Positions 4,686-45,464 of a stretch of DNA of 64,000 nucleotides are shown here, in pieces. Positions within the stretch are counted from its first letter, which is position 1; every line of letters starts with the position of its first letter. The translations under genes and the position numbers were made by a program. Below the pieces are notes generated by a model. That model saw nothing but the letters and a program-made list of their open reading frames with translations. It ran no database searches and was not told the DNA's origin. Source of the stretch: Capsulimonadaceae bacterium (GTDB lineage Bacteria; Armatimonadota; Armatimonadia; Armatimonadales; Capsulimonadaceae); the NCBI GenBank assembly GCA_965215505.1, contig OZ244065.1, positions 2,176,001-2,240,000 of the forward strand. Reading direction: 5' to 3'.

Positions 4686-6487
4686 TGCCCCTTTCTCACA
4701 CTATCAATCCTACCTTGAAAGTCCACAAGCCTACCACCCTCCTGGAGCCTGAGAAAGCGGTCCGCTAGGACATTTCGGAACGTGTCTGTGTGTCCGCTCG
4801 GCCAGCGCACCCGCACCGTGTCTGCGGCGGTCGCTGCGCCCAGGCCGATGTGAACGCGCTTGTCTGAGGAGGACAGATACGACCCGTCGGCGTGGCAGAG
4901 GCGCGTCTGCACCAGGCCCGGCGTCTCGGCCGTCACCCGCGCCCCGTAGCCGTCCCGGTTGCTCCGGTTGCCGACGAGCGACAGCGACAGCCAGTGGCCG
5001 GTCGTGGCGCTCTCGTTGCGGAGCAGGAGGGGCGCCCCCTCGCTGTCCACGACCAGCGCGTCTTCCCGCCCGTCGTTGTCGAAGTCGCCGACCGCAAGGC
5101 CCCGCCCGACGAGTGGCTTGGACAGGTCTGTCCCTGCCCGCCCACTCATGTCCACGAAGAGGTACCCGTGGTCGTTCCGGAATAGTTGCGTTGCCTGGCG
5201 GTAGCGGGTGGAAGGGTCTGCTTGGGCGATGTTGTCGCGGACGGCCCCATTGGTGATCATCAGGTCCAGCCAGCCATCGTTATCGTAGTCCAGCCACTTC
5301 ACCCCGAAGGCAACGTTGCCCGCCGTGCGGCCCGTGAGCGCGAGGGGGTCCGAGACCTCCTCGAACAGTCCCGCCCCCACATTATGGTAGACGCACTTCG
5401 GCTCCCCCTGGAAGGCCATCACCGTCAAGTCCAGCCGGCCGTCGTTATCGTAGTCGCCCCAGTCCAGTCCCATGCCGGAGTGGATCTTCCCGTGCCCATC
5501 GTAGGCGCTCCCCGACCGGCGTGCCAGGTCTATAAACCTGCCCCCGGCGTTGTGGAACTCCTCCCCCGGCCGGGTGTCATTCGCGAGATAGAAGCTCTGG
5601 CGGCCCGACCCGTCGTAGTCGGCGAAGGCGACCCCGAGGTTCTTGCCGATGCTCTGCACCCGCCACTCGGCGGAGACATCTCGGAACCGCCCCTGCCCCT
5701 CGTTGTGGTACAGCACGCCCTGTTCCGGCGGGTACATCATGGGGCTGCATGTGCCGTCCAGCCGGCCGTCATTGCAGAGCCGGTGCGGGTCGGCCGGGTC
5801 GAACTTGACGTAGCCGCAGACGAACAGGTCGAGCCGCCCGTCGCCGTCTATGTCCCCCCAGGCGCACGAAGTACCCCAGGGCTGGGGCTTCAGACCGGCT
5901 CGCGCCGTCACGTCCCGGAAGGACTTCCCCTTCTCGTTGTGCAGCAGCAGCCCGGTCCGGTAGCCGCTGAGGTAGATGTCGTCGTAGCCGTCATTGTCGT
6001 AGTCGCCGACGGCGCAGCCCAGGAAGTGGCCTTTGAGGGCGTCCAGGCCCATCGAGCGCGAAACGTCGGTGAAGTGTCCGCGCCCGTCGCCCTTGAAGAG
6101 CGCGACATGGTCGGTGCCGACCAGCAGGACCGACAGGTCGCCCGAGTTGTCATAGTCCAGGAAGGCGCAGCCGTTGCCGATAGTCTGCAGGATGTCCAGC
6201 GGCCTTGGCCCCGGCACGGTCCACCGGTAGCGCAGACCGGCCTTCTCCGCCACGTCCACGAAAGACGCCCGCGCCGCGCCCGCGCTCCCGATCGCCGCCG
6301 CGCCGGTCGGGGCGCCCGGCTCCGGGCGGTGAAGCGCCGACCAGGGAGTGCCGCGCCGGACGCTCCTGCCGGGGGCCGCCATCTCCCGCTCGAAATGGTG
6401 CGCAGTGGCGTGATAATGCGCCGCCCCCGCGAGAAGCAGGGCGGCCCCGGCCAGGGCGATCATGGCCGGCAGGCATGACGGTTTCAT
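4499..6487 (-). CDS. CRTAC1-family FG-GAP repeat / ASPIC-UnbV domain protein, secreted
   Basis: Repeated GDYDNDG.D motifs; ASPIC/UnbV segment SNRDGYGARV...SYLSSSDKRVHIGLG...VRWPSG. The last ~60 codons run antisense through the ISL3 remnant. Confidence 0.85.
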   Translation of the reverse strand: MKPSCLPAMIALAGAALLLAGAAHYHATAHHFEREMAAPGRSVRRGTPWSALHRPEPGAPTGAAAIGSAGAARASFVDVAEKAGLRYRWTVPGPRPLDILQTIGNGCAFLDYDNSGDLSVLLVGTDHVALFKGDGRGHFTDVSRSMGLDALKGHFLGCAVGDYDNDGYDDIYLSGYRTGLLLHNEKGKSFRDVTARAGLKPQPWGTSCAWGDIDGDGRLDLFVCGYVKFDPADPHRLCNDGRLDGTCSPMMYPPEQGVLYHNEGQGRFRDVSAEWRVQSIGKNLGVAFADYDGSGRQSFYLANDTRPGEEFHNAGGRFIDLARRSGSAYDGHGKIHSGMGLDWGDYDNDGRLDLTVMAFQGEPKCVYHNVGAGLFEEVSDPLALTGRTAGNVAFGVKWLDYDNDGWLDLMITNGAVRDNIAQADPSTRYRQATQLFRNDHGYLFVDMSGRAGTDLSKPLVGRGLAVGDFDNDGREDALVVDSEGAPLLLRNESATTGHWLSLSLVGNRSNRDGYGARVTAETPGLVQTRLCHADGSYLSSSDKRVHIGLGAATAADTVRVRWPSGHTDTFRNVLADRFLRLQEGGRLVDFQGRIDSVRKGHFPASAGPGVCAGSGCGHVPPHGRRGGTEQCGRRRGLGPRRLLGKGAARQAPSDAGRAGSTG

Positions 6488-6515
6488 GGCATCTTTCTGT
6501 TCCCCGAGATGCGGG

Positions 6516-8537
6516 TCAGCGGGCGAAGGTGCGGAAAAGGTTGACGTGAAAGAGGGTGCCGACGATGCTCCAGGCCGCCCCGGTCACGAAATCACCCAGG
6601 ATGAGGCCCAGGAAGAAAGGCAGGGCGCGGCGGTACACCGCCATGCCCCCGTAGCGCAGGATCAGGGCCTTAAACAGCCAAGCGACGAACATATCGCCCC
6701 AAAAGAAGTCGTTGGCGAAGGTCATATTCAGGGCATAGGGGGCCGGGTGCAGCGGGAAGCCGAGGAAGCGCGCCCGGATGGCGGCCAGCGCCATGGTCAG
6801 GGCCGCGCCGAACACCATTGCCGCCAACGCGTGCGGGTCGGCCGGCTGCGGGTCACGGAGCCAATGCTGCAAGCCGTGCCAGGCTTCCGAGCCTTTGTCG
6901 GTGCGCCAGCCGTTGACGTTCCCGGTCGCGGCGCCGTGAACATAGTAGAGCTGCAAGTCCCACAGGAGCGCCGAGGCCATAGCCACCGCCCCCGCCAGCA
7001 TCAGCGCGGGCACCAGCGGGGATAGCCGGGCGCGCGTCCGCTCCAGCCCGACGAACGCTTCTAGCTGGTGCGGCATCGCCGCCGCTCGGTAATCGAGGTT
7101 GAACCAGGACAGCGTCGCCGTGTGCGCGAGGTCCGCCTGGGAGAGGTTGGCGCTGCCCAGGACGCCGGTCAGGATGCTCTGCGGGTTGACCCACATCAGC
7201 TCAGTGGAGAGCACGGCTGTTTCGGCCCGGATGCGCGAGAGCGTCACCATCAGCAGCAAATAGACGCCCAGGAAGGCGACGGGCAGCCACCACGACCCGC
7301 CCCAGGACCAGACGAAGGCGGACAGTGCTAGGAACCCGACGAGGAAGCCGGCGACCGCCAGGCGAGCGCTCATCGGCTCGTCGGCGTCCAGGACTTTCTC
7401 GCCGCCCCGCAGGGCACGCTGCAGGTAGATCTTGAAGGACCCGCGCCCGGCCCAGAGCGCGCCCAGGCCGAGGATAAGCCAAGCTCCCCACGCCTGGTCA
7501 CCGGTGTAAGGGAACTGGGCGCTCGCATCCACGACCCAGCCGGTCGCCGGCTGGCGCCAGCCCTGGGTGACGCCCCAGACGCTGGCGGCCTTCTTGGCGA
7601 GGTAGAAGAACCAGAGGGAGAACGAGACGTCCGTGTTGACCAGATACCCGAAGCCCACACCCGAGGGGTGAAGCTGATAGAACAGCGACCCGACGCCGGT
7701 CCACGGGAACTGCAACGGGGCGTCCCAGAGCAGATCGTGGGTGCTGTTGATGGGGAACGACGGCAGAGTGGGGTAGACGCTCTGGAGCGAGTTGAGTGAG
7801 TGCAGGGCGCAGGGCAGGGCGAAGCCCAGCCACAGCAGGCGGCTGCGGTAGAGGGGCGCCCCTTCGCGTGTCATCTCCAGGGGCAGGGCGATGACTGGGA
7901 AGGGCAGATGCTCCTCATCGGCCCAGCGGCGGCGAAGGATGGCGGCAAGGCAGAGGGTCGTCCAAAGCAGGATCAGAAAGAAGACGCCCCATGTCAGAAG
8001 GTGCGGTGCCCAGGCGGCCATGACCTCGGGCCGGAAGAAGGTGGAGTGGCCCGCGTAGAACCCCTGTAGGACTGCCGGGTCGCGCGGGCCGACGGCGGGC
8101 GGCAACAGGTGCTGGAACTCGCGCCAGCCGTTGCTGTTGTCGGCGAAATAGAAGGCGTTGGACAGGAACGGGGTGAAGAACCCGATGTTCCCCACACCCG
8201 CCACGGCACTCGACATGGACAGCAGGCTGTAGAGCGCCATCATCTCGGGCTGGTTCATGGCCGCCGCCCCGGCCAGTCGGCGGACTAGGAGGTTCAGCAG
8301 GGTGAGCACGAACAGCAGGAAGGTGACTCCTAGAAAGAGCGTGGAGATGGTCATTTCGGTCATGCCGGCCCGCATCTCCGAGTTCGCGATCCAGCCCGTG
8401 TTGAGGACGATCAGCGGCAGGGTGACGGCGGCGACGTACCCCCAGCGGACGGGGACGGGGTCTGCCGGCGCGCTGCTTCCCTCCGGGGGTGACATCGCTT
8501 GCCCCGGCGCATCATGTGCCGTCTTGTTCATCGGCAT
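6516..8537 (-). CDS. DUF6785/DUF6784-like polytopic membrane protein (putative OPT-like transporter)
   Basis: Many hydrophobic helices; RRRWADEEHLPFP and FPLHPAPY...PFFLGLILGDF motifs typical of this family. Confidence 0.65.
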   Translation of the reverse strand: MPMNKTAHDAPGQAMSPPEGSSAPADPVPVRWGYVAAVTLPLIVLNTGWIANSEMRAGMTEMTISTLFLGVTFLLFVLTLLNLLVRRLAGAAAMNQPEMMALYSLLSMSSAVAGVGNIGFFTPFLSNAFYFADNSNGWREFQHLLPPAVGPRDPAVLQGFYAGHSTFFRPEVMAAWAPHLLTWGVFFLILLWTTLCLAAILRRRWADEEHLPFPVIALPLEMTREGAPLYRSRLLWLGFALPCALHSLNSLQSVYPTLPSFPINSTHDLLWDAPLQFPWTGVGSLFYQLHPSGVGFGYLVNTDVSFSLWFFYLAKKAASVWGVTQGWRQPATGWVVDASAQFPYTGDQAWGAWLILGLGALWAGRGSFKIYLQRALRGGEKVLDADEPMSARLAVAGFLVGFLALSAFVWSWGGSWWLPVAFLGVYLLLMVTLSRIRAETAVLSTELMWVNPQSILTGVLGSANLSQADLAHTATLSWFNLDYRAAAMPHQLEAFVGLERTRARLSPLVPALMLAGAVAMASALLWDLQLYYVHGAATGNVNGWRTDKGSEAWHGLQHWLRDPQPADPHALAAMVFGAALTMALAAIRARFLGFPLHPAPYALNMTFANDFFWGDMFVAWLFKALILRYGGMAVYRRALPFFLGLILGDFVTGAAWSIVGTLFHVNLFRTFAR

Positions 8538-8837: not shown

Positions 8838-11462
8838 TCATCTCTTCTGGACTGTTTCAGCGCTACTTGGTACTGTTAGCCACAGGGAATTCTCCACGTC
8901 CAGTGTCTGCGGTTCCGGCAAGTCTATGACACCGCCCTGGGAAAGCTCCAGTCTTTTAAGCTTCAGTTCCCCAAACATCACCTGCACCGTCACTTCCGTG
9001 CCGGACTCGACCGGCTTCTGTCGGCACGTCCCCCACACCGATCCGTTTGACCAGAACCATTGGCATGGTTCTGGCGAAGACCGGAAGCGGAGCGTCTGAG
9101 CCACAGCGTCATAGTGAAACCCGGTCAGCGCCAGCACCGCCGACCAGCTCGCCATCGCGCGGAAGTAGTGGTGGCCGCACTCGGCCTCGTCGAACGGGCT
9201 GCGCTTGCGCCCGTCATACCGATCACGGATCGCCTGGATGACGCGCAGGCCGTCCTCGCATTGGCCTTCGTAGAGCATCCCGACCGCTGCGACGTGTTCG
9301 TAGCCGGTCATCACCTCGTTGTAATAGGGGAACGGGCGCTTGGGGCGGCGGCCCAGTGGGTAGGTTGCCATCAGCATCGCCGACTCTTCCTGCAGCGCGA
9401 ACGTCCGCAGGTGGTTGAAGTGGCCGTACAGGTCGGTCTTGAAGTTGTAGCGCATCAGGCTGCGCAGGGTCGCCCGTACGTGTTCCGGGTCCAGCAGGTA
9501 GTCCAAGCCGCAGACGTGCGCCAGGTACTGCCCGACCAGTTGGTCTATCAGGCAGCCCGCGCCGAGCTGCAGTTCCGGGTCGGAGAGGTCGCGGGCACCC
9601 ATGCTCTCGTGCCGCAGGCCGGGCGCGATAGCGGCCTCATCACTGATGGGCCGTATCTGGTGCTCGTAATACTCGCCGTTGAAGAGATGCCGGTCTATCC
9701 AGCGACTGCCTCGATCAAAAAGGTCGCGGCAGGTAGCGGCGAACTCGCCTTCGCCCAGGTGACGCGCCATCTCTTCGCACGCGCGCAGTGCGCCCAGGTA
9801 CCACGCCCCCATCTGCGGGTTAGGGCCGTAGTATTCCACATCCATCGTGTTGTGCTGGCAGCCTTCCATCACGCCGTCTTTGTCCGCGTCCCAGCCGCCC
9901 TCGATCCAGCAGAACTCCAACGCCTTTTTTGCACGGGGCCAAAGCGAACTGAGCATGGCCTCATCGCCGGATAGACGCCAGTCCCGGTAGAGCTTCATCA
10001 GGCAGCCCATCTGCCCGTCCGCCGCCGCCAAGCCCCACTCTTGCGCCCGGCCCAGGGGCAGGTTGACTCGGAAGCTCATCAGGCCGTTCGGGGCGGTCGT
10101 GTGGCCGAACTCGACCTCGCGCATGGCGCGGGACAGGTCGCCGAACAGGAACGCCGTTGCCGTCTCGTAGTTGAAGACGTGGGTGCAGCTGCCGTGGCAG
10201 CACCCGCTCTTGTCGCCGCAGCCCTCCCACCCGTAGAACCGTCCGTCCGCCGTGCGGAAGCAGGTCTGCGTGCGCAGCGTCGAGAGGTTGAACAGAGCCG
10301 CCTCTTTCACCACGTCCGGCAGGTCGCTGCCGCAGAAGGCGCGCACGAATGCCACAGTGTCCTTCTCCAGACTGGGCAGGGCCACAACAGTGCGCTTGGC
10401 GACATCCCAGGCGTCGCGGTACTGGGTCGCGTAATGGTTGCCGATCCAGTCGGGATTGTCGGCCGGGTCGCCGCAGGAGCCATCCGCACAACCGCAGCTG
10501 TCGGCTTGGTTGGTAAGAGCCGGAGTCCAGGTCATTCGGTTGGGGAAGTGCCACGTCAGCAGGAACGTGATCTCCTGGCTGGAGCCGGCGGGTAGGTCCA
10601 GCGTCACCGCCAGGGAGGCGGTCGGCGCGTCTTCGTCCGTGGCCGTGCGTTCTTCCAGCCTGCCATCCTCGCTGAAGTCGTCCCAGAAGTCCAGCAGCGA
10701 GTCGCCCCAGCTCAGGGACGGCCAGGCGGTGCGATAGGTCACGCCGTCGGTCGTCGTCGTGCCGACCGCCATCGTCCCCCACTGTTCGGCCTGCGGGTCC
10801 ACGCCCTCGGAGCGCAGGAACACGCCGGACAAGCCGTCCGTCTGTCGGAAGACGTTCCTGTTTTTGCTTGGCTTCCCGTTCGACCCGTCCTGACCGATGA
10901 AGTTCTGGACGCTGCCGCAGACCGAGGCCGTCAGCGCGCCGTCCGTCCTGTTCGTCAGTACATAGCGCAGGAACGCGATGGGGATGCCGCTGCGCTCGGC
11001 GTCGCCTGGAATCAGCGGGTTAAAGGCCTGCAGCCGGACCTCGACCGGGACATCGGGATCGGAAAGAAGCACCTGCCCCAGCGGGTACGCCGCCTCGAAC
11101 CGGGCAGAGCGGAAACGCGGCAGGCCGTGGTTCTTAGCCGTGCTGCCGAAGTCACCCTCGTAGGCGGTCACGTCCAGCGGCCCTTCCAGAGCGCGCGTGA
11201 CGGAAAGCCCGTTGTCCGACCGAACATTCAGGGCGAAAAAGGTTCGCTCCGGCGTGAAGCCTTTCGCGGGTCGGTTGACCACCTCCCAATCCCGCAGGTC
11301 GCCGCGCCCGCCGAGCGAGACGGTCCCCGTGCCGATGCCGCCCAAGGGTAGGGCGATCCGCGCCAGATGGTCCTGGTCGTACTCACGCAGGACCGGCCAT
11401 GTTTCCGTCGGCAGTCGTCGTTCCTTCACGCTGTGTTGCTCCGCTGCCGCTGTGTGATTCAC
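8838..11462 (-). CDS. GH116 glycoside hydrolase
   Basis: IALPLGGIGTG, FYGWEGC, GSCTHV, AADGQMG, HNTMDVE, DQLVGQ, EAECGHHYFRAMASW. Confidence 0.9.
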   Translation of the reverse strand: MNHTAAAEQHSVKERRLPTETWPVLREYDQDHLARIALPLGGIGTGTVSLGGRGDLRDWEVVNRPAKGFTPERTFFALNVRSDNGLSVTRALEGPLDVTAYEGDFGSTAKNHGLPRFRSARFEAAYPLGQVLLSDPDVPVEVRLQAFNPLIPGDAERSGIPIAFLRYVLTNRTDGALTASVCGSVQNFIGQDGSNGKPSKNRNVFRQTDGLSGVFLRSEGVDPQAEQWGTMAVGTTTTDGVTYRTAWPSLSWGDSLLDFWDDFSEDGRLEERTATDEDAPTASLAVTLDLPAGSSQEITFLLTWHFPNRMTWTPALTNQADSCGCADGSCGDPADNPDWIGNHYATQYRDAWDVAKRTVVALPSLEKDTVAFVRAFCGSDLPDVVKEAALFNLSTLRTQTCFRTADGRFYGWEGCGDKSGCCHGSCTHVFNYETATAFLFGDLSRAMREVEFGHTTAPNGLMSFRVNLPLGRAQEWGLAAADGQMGCLMKLYRDWRLSGDEAMLSSLWPRAKKALEFCWIEGGWDADKDGVMEGCQHNTMDVEYYGPNPQMGAWYLGALRACEEMARHLGEGEFAATCRDLFDRGSRWIDRHLFNGEYYEHQIRPISDEAAIAPGLRHESMGARDLSDPELQLGAGCLIDQLVGQYLAHVCGLDYLLDPEHVRATLRSLMRYNFKTDLYGHFNHLRTFALQEESAMLMATYPLGRRPKRPFPYYNEVMTGYEHVAAVGMLYEGQCEDGLRVIQAIRDRYDGRKRSPFDEAECGHHYFRAMASWSAVLALTGFHYDAVAQTLRFRSSPEPCQWFWSNGSVWGTCRQKPVESGTEVTVQVMFGELKLKRLELSQGGVIDLPEPQTLDVENSLWLTVPSSAETVQKR

Positions 11463-11510
11463 GTGATTTCTCCTTCGTCAGGGTTTGCCGACCTGGACAG
11501 GGACATTTTG

Positions 11511-12557
11511 TCACCATTGGTAGAGGAAAACGTAGGTCCTGTATTCGGTCGGCGGGGGATCGCCGATCACCCCATAAACACCGCCGTAGCGTTCGCCGTC
11601 CCGGCAGGTGAGTCGGAAGCCGTGCTGGAAGAAGACGGGGTCGTCGTCGTGGAACCGGTACGCCGAGAAGGCGTTCTCGGCCTTGTTGATGTAGGTCAGT
11701 CCGGCGACCGCCCCGTAGTAGAGCTGGCTCTGATGGAAATAGCCCGACCCCAGGAAGTAGTCCTCCAGGCCCGACGACAGAAGCTCGGGATCCTTCGAGC
11801 CGTCGATATAGGCCCGGATGTTTCCCTCCATATAACTCAGGTCCGTCCAGTTGCCGGTCGCCTTGCGCTGCCCCTGTGCCGCCATCACGACCAGGTAGAG
11901 CATGCCTGCGCCCCGGACGTTGCACATATCGAACTCTTCCAGCGGCTTGGCGTCGTAGGGCTCCAGCGTGTAGAGCCTCAGTCGGGCATTGTCGGGCAGG
12001 CGCATTCCGCCGACGATCGTCGGCAGGTTGTCCGTTCCCCGGATCGTCCACCAGCCCTTTTTGCCCGTGCCGGCGTTGAAGACGTTCGTCATCGGGAAGA
12101 TGGTCACACGGACGCTTTTGCCGTAGGGGATGCGGTAGGTGTTGAACTGCGCTCCGTAGCGGCCCATCTTCGGGCTGCCGAAGGGCGCGGGCGAGCCGCC
12201 GAAGGCGTACCCGTGCCCCAGGTCCAGCGCCATGTCGATCGAGGGGCGCGCCTCCCCGTCCACATACACGCGCACCCGCACCCGCTCGTCCATGGCGAAG
12301 AACATATAGGTCAGGCAGCCATGGCCGGTGTGGCTGAGGAGTTCCGTTTCCTTGCCCGCCTGCAGCACGTCGCCGCCTTTGCCGCTGGCGCTGAAAGTCT
12401 TCAGGGCGTTAAAAGCGATGGCCGGGGTCCCTTTGACACTCTTCCCGGCGGGGCTCGCGGGCATGGCCGTGTCACGCTGAGGCGCGGCGCAGGAGGCGAG
12501 GGCCGTCAGCAGCACCACGGCGCTAAGTGTCAGGGACAGAGTGGCGTGACATTTCAT
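11511..12557 (-). CDS. DUF2961 (GH172-like) glycoside hydrolase, lipoprotein
   Basis: Lipobox [33 protein letters not shown]. Start set at MKCHAT; the ORF is open to 12632. Confidence 0.8.
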   Translation of the reverse strand: MKCHATLSLTLSAVVLLTALASCAAPQRDTAMPASPAGKSVKGTPAIAFNALKTFSASGKGGDVLQAGKETELLSHTGHGCLTYMFFAMDERVRVRVYVDGEARPSIDMALDLGHGYAFGGSPAPFGSPKMGRYGAQFNTYRIPYGKSVRVTIFPMTNVFNAGTGKKGWWTIRGTDNLPTIVGGMRLPDNARLRLYTLEPYDAKPLEEFDMCNVRGAGMLYLVVMAAQGQRKATGNWTDLSYMEGNIRAYIDGSKDPELLSSGLEDYFLGSGYFHQSQLYYGAVAGLTYINKAENAFSAYRFHDDDPVFFQHGFRLTCRDGERYGGVYGVIGDPPPTEYRTYVFLYQW

Positions 12558-12625
12558 TGTGGTTGAAGAGTGGCGCTTCATTGCCAGACGGTTCTTTCTT
12601 GGGCGTCCCTGCCGGACCATGGGAT

Positions 12626-13543
12626 TCACCATTCATAGACCCAGGTGTAGGTCGTGAAGCGCGTCGGCGGCGGGTCGTGGAGCACGGCGCCGTTCAGCTC
12701 CTCGCCGCACCGGCAGGTCAGCCGCAGGCCCGCCCGGAAGAAGATGGGGTCGTCATCGTGGAACCGGTACGCCGAGAAGGCTTTGCGCGCAGCGTCCAGG
12801 AACGTCAGGCCGGCGACCGCGCCGTAATAGAGCTGGTTCTGGTGGAAGTAACCCGAGCCGAGGAAGTAGTCTTCCAAGCCCGAAGACAGATACTGCGGCT
12901 CGGTCCCGCCGTTCAGGTAGGCCCGTATGCAGCCTTCCATGTAGCTGATATCTTTCCAGTCGCCAACGTTCCGCAGGCTCTCCGCGGCTATGGTGACTAA
13001 ATAGAGCAGGCCCGCGCCGGGGACGTCGCACAGGGCGAACTCCTCCAGAGGCTCGGCCTCGTGTCCCTCCAGGCGGTGCAGCCGCAGCCGCGCCCCGTCC
13101 GGCAGGCGCTGACCAGCGACCACAAGGGACAGATCTTCCGTCCCCCGGATGATCCACCAGATCTTCCGCCCTGTGACCCAGTCGAAGACAGCGGACGTGG
13201 GGAGCAGTGTGACGCGCACCCCGTCGCCGTAGGGGATGTGGTAGGTGTTGAAATGTCCCCCATACCTCCCCATCTTCGGACTGCCGAAGGGGGACGGCGA
13301 GCCCCCAAAGGCATACCCGTGGCCCATGTCCATTGCCATGTCGATCGAGGCCGCCGCCTCGCCGTCCACATAGACGCGGATGCGGACGCGCGGGTCCATG
13401 GCGAACCACATGTGTGTCAGGACGCCCCGCCCGGCGCGGCGGAACAGCTCGATCTCCCGGCCCGCTTCCAGCGCCTCGATCTCTTTGCCCATGGCGCTGA
13501 AGGTGTCCAACGTGTCCAAACTGTTCAACCGCTTACCACTCAT
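12626..13543 (-). CDS. DUF2961 (GH172-like) glycoside hydrolase
   Basis: [35 protein letters not shown]. Confidence 0.85.
   Translation of the reverse strand: MSGKRLNSLDTLDTFSAMGKEIEALEAGREIELFRRAGRGVLTHMWFAMDPRVRIRVYVDGEAAASIDMAMDMGHGYAFGGSPSPFGSPKMGRYGGHFNTYHIPYGDGVRVTLLPTSAVFDWVTGRKIWWIIRGTEDLSLVVAGQRLPDGARLRLHRLEGHEAEPLEEFALCDVPGAGLLYLVTIAAESLRNVGDWKDISYMEGCIRAYLNGGTEPQYLSSGLEDYFLGSGYFHQNQLYYGAVAGLTFLDAARKAFSAYRFHDDDPIFFRAGLRLTCRCGEELNGAVLHDPPPTRFTTYTWVYEW
12633..12775. repeat. 143-bp direct repeat, copy 1 (3' end of a DUF2961 gene)
   Basis: Matches 13540-13682 with one mismatch by manual alignment. Confidence 0.9.
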
Positions 13544-38059: not shown

Positions 38060-39520
38060 ATGACCGCCCCATTACCGCCCGACGAGACCGAACGCCTGCG
38101 CGCCCTGTACGAGTGCAGCATCTTGGACACCGCGCCCGAGGAAGTGTTCGACGATATTACCCGCTTGGCCGCCCAGGTCTGCGGCGTGCCCATCGCCGCC
38201 GTTACCCTCATTGACGCGGAGCGGCAGTGGCTCAAATCCGTCGTGGGCCTGAGCGGCAGGGAAACTCCGCGCGATGTGGCCTTCTGCGCCCACACGATCC
38301 TCCAGGCGAATATTTTGGTCGTCCCCGACGCCCGCGCCGACCTCCGATTTGCCGACAACCCCCAGGTGACGGGGCCTCCACACATCCGCTTCTATGCGGG
38401 CGTGCCGCTGATCTCCGAGGAGGGACGTGCGCTCGGCTCCCTGTGCGTCATTGACACTCTTCCCAGGACTCTCACGCCGGACCAGGAGGCGACCCTGTGC
38501 CTGCTGTCGCGTCAGGTCTGTAGCCATCTCCGGGCGGCCCGCCGGGCCACTGAGCGGGAACGGGCCGAGGCCGCCCTCGTCCAGACCCATTCGGCGCTGC
38601 GGACGGTCCTGGAGAGCGCGCCCCTCATCCTCTACGCCGCCGACGCCGACGGGACGGTGACCCTGTCCGAGGGAAAGGGCCTGTCGGCGCTCGGGCTGGG
38701 GCCGAGCGATGCGGTCGGGCACTCCGTCTTCGAGTTCAGCGCGGGGGACACCGAGAACGAGACGAATATGCGCCGCGCATTGGCGGGCGAAGCGATTTCC
38801 TACGACGCCCGCGTGAACAGCGTGTGGCTGCACACTGAGGTGCGGCCCCTGCACAATGCGGACGGGACGCCCTCGGGCATCATCGGCGTCTGCCTGGATG
38901 TGACCGAGCGGATGCGGGCGGAGGAGCGGGTCAATGACCATGTGGTCATCCTGGAGTTCCAGGAGCTGCAAAAGAATGAGCTGGAGAAGGCGAACGCGGA
39001 ACTCGCGTCGCTCGCGACCACAGACGGGCTGACGGGCCTAAAAAATCATCGGGCTTTCCAGGAGAGGCTGGCGGAGGAGGTCAGCCGGAGCGCCCGCTAC
39101 GGGACGCCGCTGTCGCTGATCCTGCTCGATGTGGACCGATTCAAGCACTATAACGATGCTCACGGCCACCCGGCGGGGGATGCAGTCCTCATGGCGGTGG
39201 CGAGCATCCTCCAGCAGAGCGCGCGGGAGACGGATTTGGTCGCCCGATACGGGGGCGAGGAATTCGTGCTGATCCTGCCCCAGACCGACCTGGACGGGGC
39301 ATCGGCCTTCGCCGAGCGCCTGCGCGTCTCAGTCGAGGGCCATTCCTGGCCGGTGCGCGCCGTCACCGCCTCCTTCGGGGTGGCATCCCTGCGGCTGGAG
39401 GACTGCGGCTCGGACGTGATCGCCCGCGCGGACGAGGCGCTGTACCGGTCCAAGGCGGCGGGGCGGAACCGGGTGACGTCCTCAGCCGGGCCTTGCGGCC
39501 CCGTCGTCCGGCATCCGTGA
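38060..39520 (+). CDS. GAF-PAS-GGDEF diguanylate cyclase
   Basis: GAF (AFCAHTIL, RFYAGVPL), PAS, DGLTGL, RETD I-site, RYGGEEF. Confidence 0.92.
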   Translation: MTAPLPPDETERLRALYECSILDTAPEEVFDDITRLAAQVCGVPIAAVTLIDAERQWLKSVVGLSGRETPRDVAFCAHTILQANILVVPDARADLRFADNPQVTGPPHIRFYAGVPLISEEGRALGSLCVIDTLPRTLTPDQEATLCLLSRQVCSHLRAARRATERERAEAALVQTHSALRTVLESAPLILYAADADGTVTLSEGKGLSALGLGPSDAVGHSVFEFSAGDTENETNMRRALAGEAISYDARVNSVWLHTEVRPLHNADGTPSGIIGVCLDVTERMRAEERVNDHVVILEFQELQKNELEKANAELASLATTDGLTGLKNHRAFQERLAEEVSRSARYGTPLSLILLDVDRFKHYNDAHGHPAGDAVLMAVASILQQSARETDLVARYGGEEFVLILPQTDLDGASAFAERLRVSVEGHSWPVRAVTASFGVASLRLEDCGSDVIARADEALYRSKAAGRNRVTSSAGPCGPVVRHP

Positions 39521-40564
39521 CAGCTCCGCCTCGATCTGCCCGACGGTCGGCAGACTGTCCAGGAGGTCATCGGGGAGGGCGTCGGTGACGCGGAACCCGG
39601 CGACTCCGATGGGCGTGGCGTTGTTCCGCAGCGCGTATTCCACCGTGACCTGCTCGCGCGTCTTGCACAGGATCAGGCCCAGGCTCGGCGCGTCCGTCGC
39701 GTGGCGCATCAGGTCATCCACGGCGGACAGGTAGAAATTCATCTTGCCCGCGAACTCCGGCACGAACTCGGTCATCTTCAGGTCCACGACGACGAAGCAG
39801 CGCAGGCGCAGGTGGTAGAACAGAAGGTCGAGGTAATAGTCCTTGCCGCCGACCTCTAGGTGGTGCTGGCTCGCGACGAACGAAAACCCGGTGCCCATTT
39901 CCAGCAGGAACTTCTGGAGGTGTGCCAGCAGCCCGTGTTCAAGATGCCGCTCCTGGGCGTCCGGTCCCAGCGTGAGGAAGTCGAAGTTGTACGGGTCCTT
40001 CAAAATCTGCTGGGCCAGGTCCGACTGGGGTGGGGGCAGCGCGCGTGAGAAGTTCGTTAGCGCCTGGCCCTGACGCCCGTACAGGCCGCTCCCGATCTGG
40101 TGTTCCAGGACGGCCCGGCTCCAGCCGTGTTCATGCGCGGCACGGATATACCAGAGCCGCTGGTCAGCGTCTTTGACCCGGTCCAGCAGCCGAACGTGGT
40201 GGCCCCAGGGCAGCGGCGAATTGTGCAACAACTGTTGCACAATTGCGGAGTCGGGATAGGCTTCCGCGAACGCGCGCATGTATTTGAGGTTGCGCGGAGA
40301 AAAGCCCTCCACCCCTGGAAACGCCGCCTTTAGGTCCACCGCCAGGCGATCCACGACTTTCGCGCCCCAGCCGTGCCGCGCCTGCCGCTGCCGGACCTCA
40401 TCGCCGATCTGCCAGTAGAGCCAGACCACCTCGCGGCTGAGGGACAGGGCCGCCCGCACCTGTGCCGTCTGGATGCGGCCCTTGATGTCCGTGAGGAAGT
40501 CCGCGTACCCCTCGAAGCCTCGGGCGATCCCGCCGGCCTCCTCTTCAGTCTCTCCTTGATCCAT
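39482..40564 (-). CDS. YhcG/DUF1016 PD-(D/E)XK nuclease family protein
   Basis: LYWQIG, GFSPRNLKYMR, KDPYNFDFL, DLLFYHLRLRCFVVVDLK, GKMNFYL. Confidence 0.9.
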   Translation of the reverse strand: MDQGETEEEAGGIARGFEGYADFLTDIKGRIQTAQVRAALSLSREVVWLYWQIGDEVRQRQARHGWGAKVVDRLAVDLKAAFPGVEGFSPRNLKYMRAFAEAYPDSAIVQQLLHNSPLPWGHHVRLLDRVKDADQRLWYIRAAHEHGWSRAVLEHQIGSGLYGRQGQALTNFSRALPPPQSDLAQQILKDPYNFDFLTLGPDAQERHLEHGLLAHLQKFLLEMGTGFSFVASQHHLEVGGKDYYLDLLFYHLRLRCFVVVDLKMTEFVPEFAGKMNFYLSAVDDLMRHATDAPSLGLILCKTREQVTVEYALRNNATPIGVAGFRVTDALPDDLLDSLPTVGQIEAELSRMPDDGAARPG

Positions 40565-42342: not shown

Positions 42343-43413
42343 TCAGCGCCCCCGCGACCGACCGGCTTGGAGTGTGACGAGGCCCGTCCCATCGGGGTTC
42401 TCCACCAGCGCGGCCTCGACGGGCAGGAACTGCGGGACGACCCACAGCACGGTCCGCAGGTGTTCTGTCACCTGAGAGGTCGTCCAGCGGCTCTCGCCCG
42501 CCGTCAGCGCCATCGGCAGGACAAGCTGGTCCGCCAGATGCTCCTCGCAGGCCGCGCCCGTCTCCCACCACGCTTTGAAGGCGTGGCAGACCTCCTCGGC
42601 GACGGCTTCCATGCGCTTGCCGCGCTCGCCGATGGCGGAGAAACCCGCCAACCCGCCTTCGCACTCGGCGACCAGAAGAACGGCAGCCCCCGCCCCGACC
42701 GAGGGCGCTTCGCGCATCTCGGTGGATAGCTCCACCGGCAGGCGACCCACTTCCTGACGCACGGCGGCGACGCCTCTCTCAGCGACGGTCGGAGGCAGCC
42801 CTGATGTCACGACGAGGGCCGTCACGGCGCGCAATCCGCCCCGCTCCGTCAACGTGATAGGCGAAATCGCGGCGTTCCCCGCGACCTCGGCACTCACCGC
42901 CCCTCCCCCTTTAGGAAAGAACCCCGCCTTCGGCGACAGCAGAGAAGCGGCCAGGCCGTGCCGCGCCAGTGTCGGCAGATAGACGCGCTCCAGGTAGTCC
43001 GCCGTCGGCGCGTGCGAGACGTGCGTCCCGCCGGTGACGGTGACGCGGGAGGCGGCAGGGGCAAAGGCGAGCGGCATCAGGACGGTTTGCAGGACGAGGG
43101 CCGTCGCCCCCGCCGTGCCGATGGCGAAGTGGTAGACGCCGTGCGTCGGCGGTGCCTGTGGGGCGAAGCGGAGGCGGACCGACCCGATCTCCGCGCCTTC
43201 CAGCGAGGCCGCACACAGCTCGGCTGCGGCCTTGACCGAGGCAAGATGCTGGGGCTGGAGGCCGGGCCGGGCGCGGCCCGCGCGTATCCGCACGATCTCG
43301 ACGGGCCGCCCCGTCAGGGCCGATAGGGACAGGCTCGTCCGCAAAATCTGCCCGCCGCCCTCCCCGTGCGACCCGTCAATGGTGACGCTGGATTGTGTGT
43401 CTAAGTTCTTCAT
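42343..43413 (-). CDS. rtcA: RNA 3'-terminal phosphate cyclase
   Basis: DGSHGEGGGQILRTSLSLS, RPGLQPQHL, GGTH, EHLADQL, TEHLRT. Confidence 0.95.
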   Translation of the reverse strand: MKNLDTQSSVTIDGSHGEGGGQILRTSLSLSALTGRPVEIVRIRAGRARPGLQPQHLASVKAAAELCAASLEGAEIGSVRLRFAPQAPPTHGVYHFAIGTAGATALVLQTVLMPLAFAPAASRVTVTGGTHVSHAPTADYLERVYLPTLARHGLAASLLSPKAGFFPKGGGAVSAEVAGNAAISPITLTERGGLRAVTALVVTSGLPPTVAERGVAAVRQEVGRLPVELSTEMREAPSVGAGAAVLLVAECEGGLAGFSAIGERGKRMEAVAEEVCHAFKAWWETGAACEEHLADQLVLPMALTAGESRWTTSQVTEHLRTVLWVVPQFLPVEAALVENPDGTGLVTLQAGRSRGR

Positions 43414-43561: not shown

Positions 43562-43637
43562 TGGTGCTCCCGACAGGATTTGAACCTGTGGCCTCGACCG
43601 TCGCAGGATCGCGTTCTATCCGCTGAACTACGAGAGC
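43562..43637 (-). tRNA. tRNA-Arg(GCG)
   Basis: 76-nt cloverleaf: GCTCTCG/CGGGAGC, A20, anticodon loop CT-GCG-AC, TTCAAAT, encoded CCA. Confidence 0.85.
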
Positions 43638-43647
43638 AATTCGAAAA

Positions 43648-43718
43648 CTCCTCGACCCGGATTCGAACCAGGGCGAACGCATTAACAGTGCGTGATGCTG
43701 CCGCTACATCATCGAGGA
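43648..43718 (-). tRNA. tRNA-Asn(GTT)
   Basis: TCCTCGA/TCGAGGA, G73, ACGCA-CTGTTAA-TGCGT, TTCGAAT; no CCA. Confidence 0.85.
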
Positions 43719-43763
43719 TCACGGCCCAGCGGTCTGTCATGACCGCCGGACCAAGTTAGAGAA

Positions 43764-43836
43764 TCGTGGCGGTGGGAATTGAACCCACGATTTACAGGGT
43801 ATGAGCCTGCCGCCTTACCAGCTTGGCTTCGCCACA
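43764..43836 (-). tRNA. tRNA-Met(CAT), atypical
   Basis: TGTGGCG/CGCCACG-A, GCAGG-CTCATAC-CCTGT, GTGGG-TTCAATT-CCCAC; no CCA. Confidence 0.8.
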
Positions 43837-43889
43837 ATGCCGTCTCTCGCTGCCCCTACCAGTCAGGGGGCAGGGGCAGAGTCCGGACG

Positions 43890-44123
43890 TCAGATGTCTG
43901 ACGCCCGGCGCGTGTGCTTGTAGTCCTGGCTGCGCTCGCGGACATATTCCACGGGCTGCCGCGCCCCGGCCCCGGTGACCTCCCAGCCGTCCTGGGTGAT
44001 TCCGTCCTCCGTCAGCCGCAGGAACCGCCCGACGACGGCGTGCTTCTCCGGTATCCAGGCCATCTGGTGCGCTGGCCCCCGCCGGAGCCGGCACTGGACG
44101 TAGTACTGTGTGTAGCCGGACAT
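43890..44123 (-). CDS. Small hypothetical protein (77 aa)
   Basis: MSGYTQYYVQCRLRR...RRASDI*; strong RBS GAAGGAG. Confidence 0.7.
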   Translation of the reverse strand: MSGYTQYYVQCRLRRGPAHQMAWIPEKHAVVGRFLRLTEDGITQDGWEVTGAGARQPVEYVRERSQDYKHTRRASDI

Positions 44124-44149: not shown

Positions 44150-44782
44150 TTACACGGCGGCCCGCGCGACCAGCGCCTGGCTGATCGCGGCGGGTACTTC
44201 GGCGTAACCGGCGACGCTCATCGAGAACGACGCCCGCCCCTGCGTCAGCGAGCGCAGGTCGGTCGTGTAGCCGAACGTCTCGGCGACCGGGACGGTGGCC
44301 CGCACGACGGCCGTGCCGTCGGCCAATGCGCTCTGGCCCAGAAGATGCCCGCGACGCCGGGCGATGTCCCCCAGCACCGGCCCGACGAAGCCGCCCGGCG
44401 TCAGCACTTCGACCAGGCCGATCGGCTCGATGAGGATCATCGGCGCGTGCTTGCAGGCATCCAGGAACGCGAGACGCCCCGCCTCGGCGAAGGCGTAGTC
44501 GGTCGAGTCCACCGCGTGCCAGCTCCCGTCCACGACCGCCACCCGCACGTCCACCACGGGGTAGCCCGCCAGGACGCCGCCGGCCATCGCACTCCTGACG
44601 CCCTTCGCGATGCTCGGGAGGAAGATGCGGGGGATGACGCCGCCCACGAGGCCGCTGACGAACTCGAACCCCGCCCCCGCCTCCAGGGCTTCCAGCATAA
44701 GGACGCAGTACGCCTTCTGGCCTTTGCCGCCGTTCTGCTTGTCCACGCGGCCTTCGCCGCGATATCTGGTCTGGTCGGTCAT
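44150..44782 (-). CDS. Stand-alone elongation factor G domain IV-V protein (no GTPase domain)
   Basis: KQNGGKGQ, GGVIP, GYPVVDV, DGSWHAVDS, EPI, GDIARRRG, FGYTTDLRSLTQGRA; own RBS GAAGGAG, with a tRNA directly upstream. Confidence 0.88.
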   Translation of the reverse strand: MTDQTRYRGEGRVDKQNGGKGQKAYCVLMLEALEAGAGFEFVSGLVGGVIPRIFLPSIAKGVRSAMAGGVLAGYPVVDVRVAVVDGSWHAVDSTDYAFAEAGRLAFLDACKHAPMILIEPIGLVEVLTPGGFVGPVLGDIARRRGHLLGQSALADGTAVVRATVPVAETFGYTTDLRSLTQGRASFSMSVAGYAEVPAAISQALVARAAV

Positions 44783-44815
44783 GGTCTTTCTCCTTCGTTC
44801 CCGGCGTTCGAGTGA

Positions 44816-44888
44816 AGCGGAAGGCGGGGCTTGAACCCGCAGCCTTCATGGTGGCACCGTGACGCTCCGCCGATTGAGCTACTTCCGC
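44816..44888 (-). tRNA. tRNA-Gly(GCC)
   Basis: GCGGAAG/CTTCCGC, U73, TCACG-GTGCCAC-CATGA, TTCAAGC; no CCA. Confidence 0.8.
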
Positions 44889-44925
44889 ATTGACTTAGTT
44901 CCGCGTGTCCTGCTCGTGGCAGGGA

Positions 44926-45000
44926 TGGAGATGGTCGGAATCGAACCGACGGCCTCCTGTTCTTCAGACAGGCGCTGCTACCGGACTGAGCTACATCTCC
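44926..45000 (-). tRNA. tRNA-Phe(GAA)
   Basis: GGAGATG/CATCTCC-A, CCTGT-CTGAAGA-ACAGG, TTCGATT; no CCA. Confidence 0.85.
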
Positions 45001-45016
45001 ACAATCAACAGCCGAG

Positions 45017-45053
45017 ACAAACAAAACGGCCTCTCGCGTAGTGCGGGAGGCCG
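45017..45053 (-). terminator. Intrinsic terminator C, upstream of tRNA-Phe
   Basis: GGCCTCCCGC-actac-GCGAGAGGCC followed by GTTTTGTTTGT. Confidence 0.75.
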
Positions 45054-45082
45054 GAGGGTTCATGGTGTGGCAGGATCGCTTG

Positions 45083-45247
45083 CTACAGCAAACGCTCCCT
45101 CCCCCATAAACCCTTCGCCCCCGCCATAAAGCGGGCACCGCCCATCGCCTGGACCTGACCTAACCCCGGCGTGACACGGCTCAGAATCAGGCGGCTTCCC
45201 GCCTGGTTCGCTTGAGCCGGTATGAAATTATTATTTGTCGCTATCAT
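45083..45247 (-). CDS. Putative leader peptide C (54 aa)
   Basis: MIATNNNFIPAQANQAGSRLILSRVTPGLGQVQAMGGARFMAGAKGLWGRERLL*; contains a G-rich segment complementary to the 5' arm of terminator C. Confidence 0.55.
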   Translation of the reverse strand: MIATNNNFIPAQANQAGSRLILSRVTPGLGQVQAMGGARFMAGAKGLWGRERLL

Positions 45248-45258
45248 TGCTGTTTAGG

Positions 45259-45267
45259 AGTATACCA
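45259..45267 (-). promoter_or_regulatory. Extended -10 promoter (internal P2)
   Basis: TGG-TATACT, 11 nt upstream of the leader C ATG, in an AT-rich stretch; no clear -35. Confidence 0.5.
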
Positions 45268-45337
45268 CGGTTTCATGGCAAATAACCATAAAGTTTACGG
45301 AGCTATCAATTTTATTTTCATGGCCGGTTGATCTGGA

Positions 45338-45409
45338 TGGGGACGCAGGGAGTTGAACCCTGACTTCGCGCTTAAAAGGCGCACACACTGACCGTTATGT
45401 TACATCCCC
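45338..45409 (-). tRNA. tRNA-Lys(TTT)
   Basis: GGGGATG/CGTCCCC-A, TGCGC-CTTTTAA-GCGCG, CAGGG-TTCAACT-CCCTG; no CCA. Confidence 0.82.
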
Positions 45410-45425: not shown

Positions 45426-45464
45426 ACAAAAAGATCGGCCCCGCGCTGTCTGCACGGGACCGAT
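45426..45464 (-). terminator. Intrinsic terminator B, upstream of tRNA-Lys
   Basis: ATCGGTCCCGTGC-agaca-GCGCGGGGCCGAT followed by CTTTTTGT. Confidence 0.78.

Follow-up and report, generated by a model that had tools for sequence, protein, structure and literature searches.

Domain IV of elongation factor G (EF-G) is a textbook case of protein-tRNA mimicry, and to our knowledge it has been described only within a GTPase. Long tRNA arrays (L-arrays), as characterized in the accessible text of the reports on them, are spread by horizontal gene transfer (HGT), contain supernumerary tRNAs, are induced by ribosome-targeting antibiotics or translational stress, are co-regulated with rtcB, and have neighbourhoods enriched in RNA-processing and translation genes (PMC8421152; PMC10272220). 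They occur in seven phyla, including Planctomycetes (PMC8421152). In jumbo phages, RtcB and ATP-dependent ligases supplement the phage tRNAs, and EF-G is not mentioned in the accessible main text of the survey reporting this (PMC7824862). Here we describe a stand-alone protein composed of EF-G domains IV and V, named EFG45, which is encoded within a tRNA array in a 64,000-nucleotide stretch (hereafter the window; assembly GCA_965215505.1, contig OZ244065.1, positions 2,176,001 to 2,240,000) of a Capsulimonadaceae bacterium (genome G000, a single contig of 6.18 Mb). What the protein is and in what genomic context its gene lies are claims that we make with high confidence.

The predicted protein contains the last two domains of EF-G. 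Pfam identified EFG_IV at residues 9-113 (profile positions 16-120 of 121, 101.7 bits) and EFG_C at residues 117-202 (85.9 bits), both above the gathering score, and the scan found no G domain, domain II, or domain III. A first-pass annotation made from the sequence alone had described an intact 210-aa open reading frame (ORF) with its own ribosome-binding site (RBS), retaining the domain IV tip loops KQNGGKGQ and GSWHAVDS as well as domain V with no G, II, or III domains, and had proposed a Pfam architecture search, structure prediction, and dN/dS among homologues as checks. The ORF, its ATG, and the AGGAG were all found, both loop motifs were seen, and the Pfam architecture (EFG_IV and EFG_C only) agrees with that description. 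The distance from tRNA-Gly(gcc) to the ATG required a small correction, being 33 nt and not 34 bp. The annotation also had the ORF beginning at the domain IV boundary; it does begin in domain IV, but approximately 10-15 residues inside it, and the alignment with Thermus EF-G begins at residue 493. The NCBIfam models for EF-G cover the protein with their C-terminal third alone (model positions ~470-700), where the highest score, 235 bits, lies far below the cut-off of 583 (EF-G/EF-2 models TIGR00484 and NF009381). An AlphaFold (AF2) model built from the family alignment had a mean pLDDT of 86.6, and a Foldseek comparison of this model with the PDB returned EF-G structures as the best matches (E 3.7e-28, 46% identity to Thermus EF-G over ~200 columns), so that structure prediction likewise gives an EF-G fold. 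G+C content at third codon positions (GC3) is 0.91, similar to that of the surrounding genes, which together with conserved relatives and the EF-G-like model indicates that the ORF is more than a chance open frame.

A protein search restricted to lengths of 115-368 aa returned 1051 proteins at E <= 0.001. The top 33 clusters (P0001-P0033) form the EFG45 family, are 58-93% identical, and contain EFG_IV and EFG_C only. Their lengths range from 178 to 221 aa, with 30 of the 33 falling between 204 and 221 aa. Below these clusters the matches were contig-end fragments of ordinary EF-G, which also contained domain III or domain II. The start of the protein is shared as well: 33 of 34 aligned sequences open with a methionine, a short run of residues, and then YRGEGR or one of its close variants, the exception being P0036, which has a canonical EF-G N-terminus, and 40 columns of this alignment are invariant. 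The nearest ESM Atlas clusters are EFG_IV plus EFG_C proteins of 198-222 aa from several phyla, where contig-end fragments are indistinguishable from true genes.

A tree was built with 145 rows, of which 35 were short forms, 30 were full-length EF-Gs from within the phylum, and 80 came from outside it; P0018, P0033, and P0036 were omitted, the last on account of its canonical N-terminus. All 35 short forms fell in one clade (SH-aLRT 99, stem 0.33), and this clade joined the phylum's own full-length EF-G with support of 93, which indicates that the EFG45 family arose once, from the EF-G of the host's own lineage. The genome encodes a normal full-length EF-G of 722 aa ~180 kb upstream of EFG45. 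The two are 51% identical, and both have an unusual cysteine after the tip loop. No N-terminal-only EF-G fragment was found in the genome, and a split EF-G gene was rejected on that ground.

The EFG45 gene is under purifying selection. Pairwise dN/dS was 0.28 between G000 and G012 (same genus), 0.30 between G000 and G061 (another genus), and 0.26 between G012 and G061. Metagenome contigs aligned to the locus gave population variants within the ORF, and 9 of the 12 listed were at third codon positions. The first-pass annotation had argued that the gene is not a decayed fusA, and had named as the contrary case a full-length EF-G at the syntenic position in relatives, with the present copy being a recent lineage-specific deletion that evolves neutrally; what G012 and G061 carry is the short form. 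With a full-length EF-G elsewhere in the genome, syntenic relatives that carry the short form, and dN/dS of 0.26-0.30, that argument stands, and EFG45 is a genuine protein with EF-G domains IV and V only.

Residues were compared between the 35 short forms and 110 canonical EF-G IV-V regions. Forty-two positions are at least 90% conserved with the identical residue in both groups, including the tip histidine and glutamine. These align with Thermus EF-G as H89 (Thermus H573) and Q16 (Thermus Q500), residues that in EF-G contact the codon-anticodon helix in the A site. H89, D92, S93, G19, and G21 are invariant across the family, as are the domain V motifs RRG and FG...LRS.TQGR. At only four of the positions conserved to 90% or more in canonical EF-G is another residue the commonest one among the short forms (G24A, P32A, L166V, and E189T), and at two further positions fewer than 70% of the short forms have the canonical residue. 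Another set of residues is conserved in the short family and not in canonical EF-G (Y7, R8, G9, C110, P114, R142, L153, D155, and G192). The short family is also less acidic, with a median net charge of -2 compared to -5.5 and -6 for canonical IV-V regions. On the simplest reading of this pattern, selection still acts on the ribosome-docking surface, and everything that GTP-driven translocation requires has been lost.

In all three genomes whose loci were read, EFG45 lies inside a tRNA array (6, 13, and 17 tRNAs in G000, G012, and G061, respectively) with RtcA or RtcB within 3 kb. In the window, six tRNAs occupy 1.85 kb, and the minus-strand order is Lys, a non-coding spacer, Phe, Gly, EFG45, a gene for a 77-aa protein, Met, Asn, Arg, and RtcA. 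The genome has 63 tRNA genes, and each of the six array anticodons recurs elsewhere, yet the array tRNAs are identical to the same-anticodon copies at only 44-53 of 74-80 aligned positions (44/76 for Lys(ttt), 47/80 for Phe(gaa), and 47/74 for Gly(gcc)). Since the anticodons are duplicated and the copies so divergent, the array tRNAs are foreign and supernumerary. The locus of G012 is syntenic and its EFG45 is 83% identical; the order there is Lys, Glu, Gln, His, Phe, Gly, EFG45, the 77-aa gene, Leu, Leu, Met, Asn, Ile, Asp, and Arg, followed by RtcA (82% identical to that of the window, dN/dS 0.18) and a zeta-toxin/AAA_33-type kinase. Relative to this array the window has lost Glu-Gln-His, Leu-Leu, and Ile-Asp, and thus looks like a reduced remnant. 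In G061 the gene (60% identical protein) is located between tRNA-Tyr and tRNA-Pro, is separated from the 77-aa gene, and it is the 77-aa gene that directly precedes RtcB. Related arrays carry an RNA ligase (PF09414 with a PHA02142 OB domain), RtcB, a TROVE/Ro60-like protein, and a methyltransferase.

The 336-bp spacer contains an AT-rich promoter-like stretch, a GC-rich section of ~250 nt where a possible short ORF begins MIA.NN, and, just before tRNA-Phe, a terminator-like hairpin followed by a T-run. It also follows tRNA-His in G012 and G061, and its hairpin is kept with compensatory changes in all three sequences. A consensus scan of the spacer returned one weak promoter-like site only and did not list the hairpin. 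The spacer may serve as a separate promoter and leader for a unit of tRNA-Phe, tRNA-Gly, EFG45, and the 77-aa gene; alternatively, it could act as a leader or attenuator or as a small RNA. A second, strong terminator-like hairpin lies upstream of the array, in the 574-bp gap between tRNA-Lys and a divergent PSCyt gene.

Distribution of EFG45 is patchy. Among the genomes of the class, which in this case is identical to the order, the gene was found in 3 of 71. It was found in 2 of the 24 genomes from the genus, and a sample of 401 genomes across the phylum gave 2, with a third match there being a full-length open frame of 722 aa. In two metagenome contigs, tRNA-Gly is joined straight to the 77-aa gene, with 688 and 710 bases corresponding to EFG45 skipped. 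Because these contigs skip exactly EFG45, it behaves as a presence/absence cassette, and it is not essential to the island, since many arrays of the same kind do without it. The distribution and gene content together indicate that EFG45 is optional cargo of a horizontally spread, phage-like island of foreign tRNA genes, RNA-repair genes, and the gene for the 77-aa protein. The tRNA-array/RNA-repair island, the 77-aa gene immediately downstream, and the patchy horizontal distribution go beyond what the first-pass annotation had described.

The 77-aa protein is a second uncharacterised protein family in the same arrays. Its ORF begins 26 nt after the EFG45 stop codon in G000, and the same 26-nt pairing is found in G012, whose copy is 88% identical (dN/dS 0.11). 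A protein search returned 40 clusters of ~77 aa and a profile search 2172 representative clusters at E <= 0.001, the best 150 of which are 58-127 aa and mostly ~70-90 aa long. No Pfam match was found, though the protein matches PHROG 25356. Its AF2 model (pLDDT 77.5) is predicted to be a small beta-barrel, and Foldseek gave no match to it in the PDB at E <= 0.001. The C-terminal tail is nearly invariant across the family, with the consensus RERSQDYKHTRRASDI. In the ESM Atlas there was a single match, of 0.76, to a mostly viral cluster of hypothetical proteins. The family is far commoner than EFG45, being found in 15 of 401 sampled genomes of the phylum and 10 of 17 sampled in the genus, and at 8 of 12 further loci tRNA genes border its gene, in an order that recurs between loci. 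Homologues with 34-43% identity occur in 16 phage records, namely 15 Caulobacter phages and one uncultured phage. In the Caulobacter jumbo phage CcrColossus, the one phage locus read, the homologue gp098 is located 189 nt after a run of 12 tRNA features. A predicted complex of EFG45 with the 77-aa protein scored 0.00, which was counted neither for nor against binding.

Table 1. Coordinates of the tRNA-array locus in the window and of related features at other loci.
Feature	Sequence	Position	Strand	Remarks
Terminator-like hairpin	window	45434-45464	(-)	13 pairs, then T-run; just upstream of tRNA-Lys
tRNA-Lys(ttt)	window	45338..45409	(-)	ARAGORN; Rfam tRNA 65 bits; first gene of array remnant
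Conserved non-coding spacer	window	45002..45337	(-)	336 bp; ~82% identical to G012, aligns with G061
tRNA-Phe(gaa)	window	44923..45001	(-)	ARAGORN, Rfam
tRNA-Gly(gcc)	window	44816..44888	(-)	ARAGORN, Rfam
Shine-Dalgarno AGGAG of EFG45	window	44790..44794	(-)	7 nt before ATG, read from sequence
EFG45 gene	window	44150..44782	(-)	intact ORF, 210 aa, ATG start; Pfam EFG_IV and EFG_C only
77-aa protein gene (small77)	window	43890..44123	(-)	own AGGAG
tRNA-Met(cat)	window	43763..43837	(-)	ARAGORN, Rfam
tRNA-Asn(gtt)	window	43648..43718	(-)	ARAGORN, Rfam
tRNA-Arg(gcg)	window	43562..43637	(-)	ARAGORN, Rfam
RtcA, RNA 3'-terminal phosphate cyclase	window	42343..43413	(-)	Pfam RTC 257 bits and RTC_insert; directly downstream of array
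YhcG-type PDDEXK nuclease (DUF1016)	window	39482-40564	(-)	PADLOC PDC-S02, E 4.7e-143
77-aa family gene	L196	3915-4148	(-)	
77-aa family gene	L224	5986-6207		
Zeta-toxin/AAA_33-type P-loop kinase	L033 (G012)	12668-13249		directly after RtcA
Second array remnant	G000, C1	~5,944,500-5,948,340		tRNA-Tyr, RNA ligase (PF09414), RtcB, tRNA-Ile(tat)
Third RtcB match	G000	~248 kb		open frame of 476 aa
Short tRNA-Leu(tag)	G000	1,531,849-1,531,922		74 nt
RtcB in two ORFs	L217 (G063)	~8998-12595		20-tRNA array; ORFs ~2.2 kb apart
TROVE/Ro60-like protein	L212 (G016)	5358-6971		537 aa; between tRNA-Glu and tRNA-Tyr

Searches for further relatives were made in several collections. Scanning genome contigs with the EFG45 protein returned only canonical full-length EF-G with at most 55% identity, and the same was true among the matches listed from a scan of metagenome contigs with the family alignment. 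Neither the search of 2.9 million viral contigs, with 11 pattern matches that were all unrelated, nor that of 50,697 phage records, with 25 matching records all below 60% identity (36-45% in the 20 listed), turned up a close relative. Two huge-phage matches that were examined are full-length EF-Gs of 681 and 708 aa. A plasmid search gave 414 records, all below 60% identity, and those with a named feature were fusA paralogues. No description of a stand-alone EF-G IV-V protein, in tRNA arrays or elsewhere, was found in the literature as far as its text was accessible, including a survey of translational GTPases (PMC4342817); an earlier mention is possible in Figure 6B or the supplements of PMC8421152, the supplements of PMC7824862, or Burroughs & Aravind 2016.

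Compared to the systems described previously, EFG45 has partial likenesses to several. It shares with canonical EF-G (fusA) the two Pfam domains, the fold, and the conserved residues given above, but it lacks the G domain and domains II and III, is less acidic with residues specific to its own family, and is encoded in a foreign tRNA array instead of the str operon. The ribosomal protection proteins Tet(M), Tet(O), and Tet(Q) are EF-G paralogues in which domain IV acts at the A site outside translocation, as it may in EFG45; however, they keep the GTPase, and EFG45 scores 53 bits in NCBIfam against a cut-off of 775. By domain content EFG45 belongs to the EF-G superfamily, and it lacks the G domain of EF-G proper and of the Tet-type proteins. 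The EF-Gs of huge phages are also translation-factor genes on mobile DNA, one of them directly after a tRNA-Met gene, but are full length and only 40-42% identical to EFG45.

The island appears to fit the concept of the L-array as presented in the accessible text of PMC8421152, with supernumerary tRNAs on one strand, a sprinkled, HGT-like spread, embedded or linked RNA-processing or translation genes, and a link to rtcB. An EF-G fragment does not appear in that portion of the text, and the copy in the window looks like a remnant, with 6 tRNAs compared to 13 in G012 and 17 in G061. Phage tRNA arrays with RNA repair (accessible text of PMC7824862, PMC10264068, and PMC11555353) are similar in that CcrColossus has a homologue of the 77-aa protein in its tRNA array; the window differs in having no phage structural genes nearby, and a search of the phage collections found no short EF-G. 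In the PrfH-RtcB2 modules, according to the accessible text of PMC9304027, PMC9223846, and PMC6514570, a cut-down homologue of an A-site factor is likewise linked to an RNA ligase of the Rtc family and spreads sporadically in an HGT-like manner. PrfH, however, is a release-factor homologue with peptidyl-hydrolase activity, whereas EFG45 is an EF-G fragment without a catalytic motif, and its linkage is looser, running through the tRNA array, with RtcA and not RtcB adjoining in the window. No release-factor (RF) domain was found in the island ORFs scanned with Pfam (EFG45, RtcA, and the 77-aa protein). EFG45 thus appears to resemble the PrfH-RtcB logic without being a member, and the resemblance would be functional only.

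Because nearly all of the universally conserved residues of domains IV and V are kept, among them the domain IV tip, which in EF-G enters the 30S A site, while the GTPase and domains II and III are lost, EFG45 most likely still docks on the ribosome without GTP turnover. We consider it quite possible, if somewhat short of probable, that EFG45, having no GTPase, binds the ribosomal A site and GTPase-associated centre in RNA-damage or translational stress. The protein would be expressed from a tRNA-mRNA transcript once translation has stalled or its machinery has been damaged, for instance by RNases that cut tRNA or rRNA or by ribosome inhibitors. It would dock at the A site and the GTPase-associated centre with no turnover of GTP and, much as in hibernation, would fill A sites that are vacant or stalled and protect them, while the array tRNAs replace damaged RNAs and the Rtc and ligase enzymes repair them. 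A-site protection or hibernation had been the other option of the first-pass annotation. A broader proposal, which we regard as tentative, is that EFG45 would be the first natural GTPase-less EF-G, docking without nucleotide, and that together with the foreign tRNAs, RtcA/RtcB/RNA ligase, and the 77-aa protein it would form a mobile 'translation-apparatus survival kit' that shields or flags ribosomes and restores tRNA and rRNA after RNA-targeting toxins or ribosome inhibitors. Several points weigh against a stress-related A-site binder. Affinity for the ribosome may be low without the G domain and domain III, and a constitutive A-site blocker would be toxic, so that tight regulation would be needed. 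Conservation of EF-G core residues may partly reflect fold stability instead of ribosome contact. The loci were read in three genomes, with the other ~30 family clusters known as proteins only, and of the 12 further loci with the 77-aa gene, 8 have tRNAs next to it but no EFG45. PADLOC assigned 0 families to EFG45, and likewise 0 to the 77-aa protein and RtcA.

Other roles were weighed against the same evidence. The link of EFG45 with RtcA (in the window and G012) and RtcB (in G061), and the invariance of the domain IV tip, the part of EF-G that extends into the decoding centre, would suit a PrfH-like damage sensor that recognises ribosomes with cut RNA in the decoding centre or the sarcin-ricin/GTPase-centre region and, beyond mere shielding, hands them to RtcB/RtcA so that rescue is coupled to repair. 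There is a precedent, in that a truncated translation-factor homologue encoded with RtcB rescues ribosomes damaged by colicin E3, as given in the accessible text of PMC9304027, PMC9223846, and PMC6514570. Nevertheless, tRNA genes interrupt the Rtc adjacency, which is not fixed, the gene abutting RtcB in G061 is that of the 77-aa protein, and EFG45 offers no counterpart to the catalytic GGQ motif of PrfH; we therefore consider a sensor unlikely, if worth keeping in mind. A fragment with the same binding determinants as EF-G may instead compete with EF-G, or with recycling by RRF/EF-G, and slow translocation, either as a growth brake under stress or as a relic of host takeover by a phage. Huge phages do encode their own EF-G, and the island appears phage-like in origin, its 77-aa neighbour being present in a jumbo-phage tRNA array. 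Against such a competitor, which we judge rather unlikely, are the lack of a close relative in the viral contigs and phage records searched, the full length of the huge-phage matches examined, a codon usage like that of the host, and long-term chromosomal retention under purifying selection.

A role away from the ribosome, as a scaffold for an island component (the 77-aa protein, RtcA/RtcB, or a tRNA-processing enzyme) or as a direct binder of tRNA or other RNA, would explain the residues conserved only in the short family and the tight pairing with the 77-aa gene in G000 and G012, to which five further pairs inferred on shared contigs from protein listings can be added. This is quite unlikely in our view, given that the 77-aa protein is far more widespread without EFG45 (15/401 compared to 2/401) and that the two genes are apart in G061. 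The decoy that the first-pass annotation had put forward as its first option, in which domain IV imitates the anticodon arm and soaks up anticodon nucleases or tRNA-targeting toxins, is in keeping with a position among foreign tRNAs that may themselves be replacements or sponges, an idea voiced for arrays (accessible text of PMC8421152) and for phage tRNAs (accessible text of PMC10264068). One would expect a decoy to have evolved in the direction of its nuclease targets, with domain V free to be lost, but the kept residues are the universal ones of EF-G and extend over the whole of domain V, which plays no part in tRNA mimicry. Anticodon nucleases also read RNA bases, which a protein cannot present, and we regard a decoy as improbable. 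The tRNA-array/Rtc context and the kept EF-G residues seem to fit a ribosome-directed role better than an anticodon-nuclease decoy. We give very little credence to a neutral leftover of a fusA duplication that is still open by chance. Descent from the host-lineage EF-G and the shared unusual cysteine would be expected of such a remnant; however, start and length are fixed across an old family that has diversified to as little as 58% identity, dN/dS is 0.26-0.30, the gene has its own RBS, and no relic of domains I-III lies upstream, where the tRNA gene is 33 nt away. That the relatives are assembly fragments is excluded by the three complete loci.

Several further features were observed in the window and in related arrays. 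The genes flanking the array in the window are ordinary chromosomal ones, encoding an ABC transporter, a GGDEF protein, a PDDEXK nuclease, an aldo-keto reductase, DinB, and PSCyt/DUF1501 proteins; with such neighbours and no phage structural genes nearby, a prophage was rejected. A YhcG-type nuclease in the window matches a candidate defence family of PADLOC (Table 1). The P-loop kinase that follows RtcA in G012 is absent from the window and may be a polynucleotide kinase belonging to the repair set. A second array remnant is present elsewhere in G000, where RtcB matches in two separate pieces and is possibly split or disrupted, and a third RtcB match lies at another position in the genome. 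In the 20-tRNA array of L217, RtcB is also split in two, which could be an insertion or an intein-like interruption. Judging by the TROVE/Ro60-like gene in the L212 array, these islands may include an RNA quality-control component of the Ro/Y-RNA type.

Some of the array tRNAs are unusual in themselves. Bacterial tRNA-Leu is expected to have a long variable arm, yet tRNA-Leu(tag/taa) genes of only 72-77 nt without such an arm are found in arrays L033, L212, L217, L218, and L223, as well as in G000. This last copy, a Leu(tag), is located beside the other Gly(gcc) copy of the genome, and the pair may itself be array-derived. Uncommon anticodons in the arrays include Ile(tat), Ile(aat), Phe(aaa), and Thr(agt).

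EF-G domains, L-arrays, and PrfH-RtcB modules were known before, and what is new here, as judged from the accessible literature, is a stand-alone EF-G IV-V family located in tRNA arrays. If the proposed role is true, a conserved domain IV-V protein would show what these domains can do alone on the ribosome, and EFG45 would be a natural tool to probe A-site occupancy. Its home in HGT-spread tRNA arrays with RNA repair ties EFG45 to the purpose of long tRNA arrays, and also to the question of how cells and phages survive RNases that cut tRNA and rRNA.

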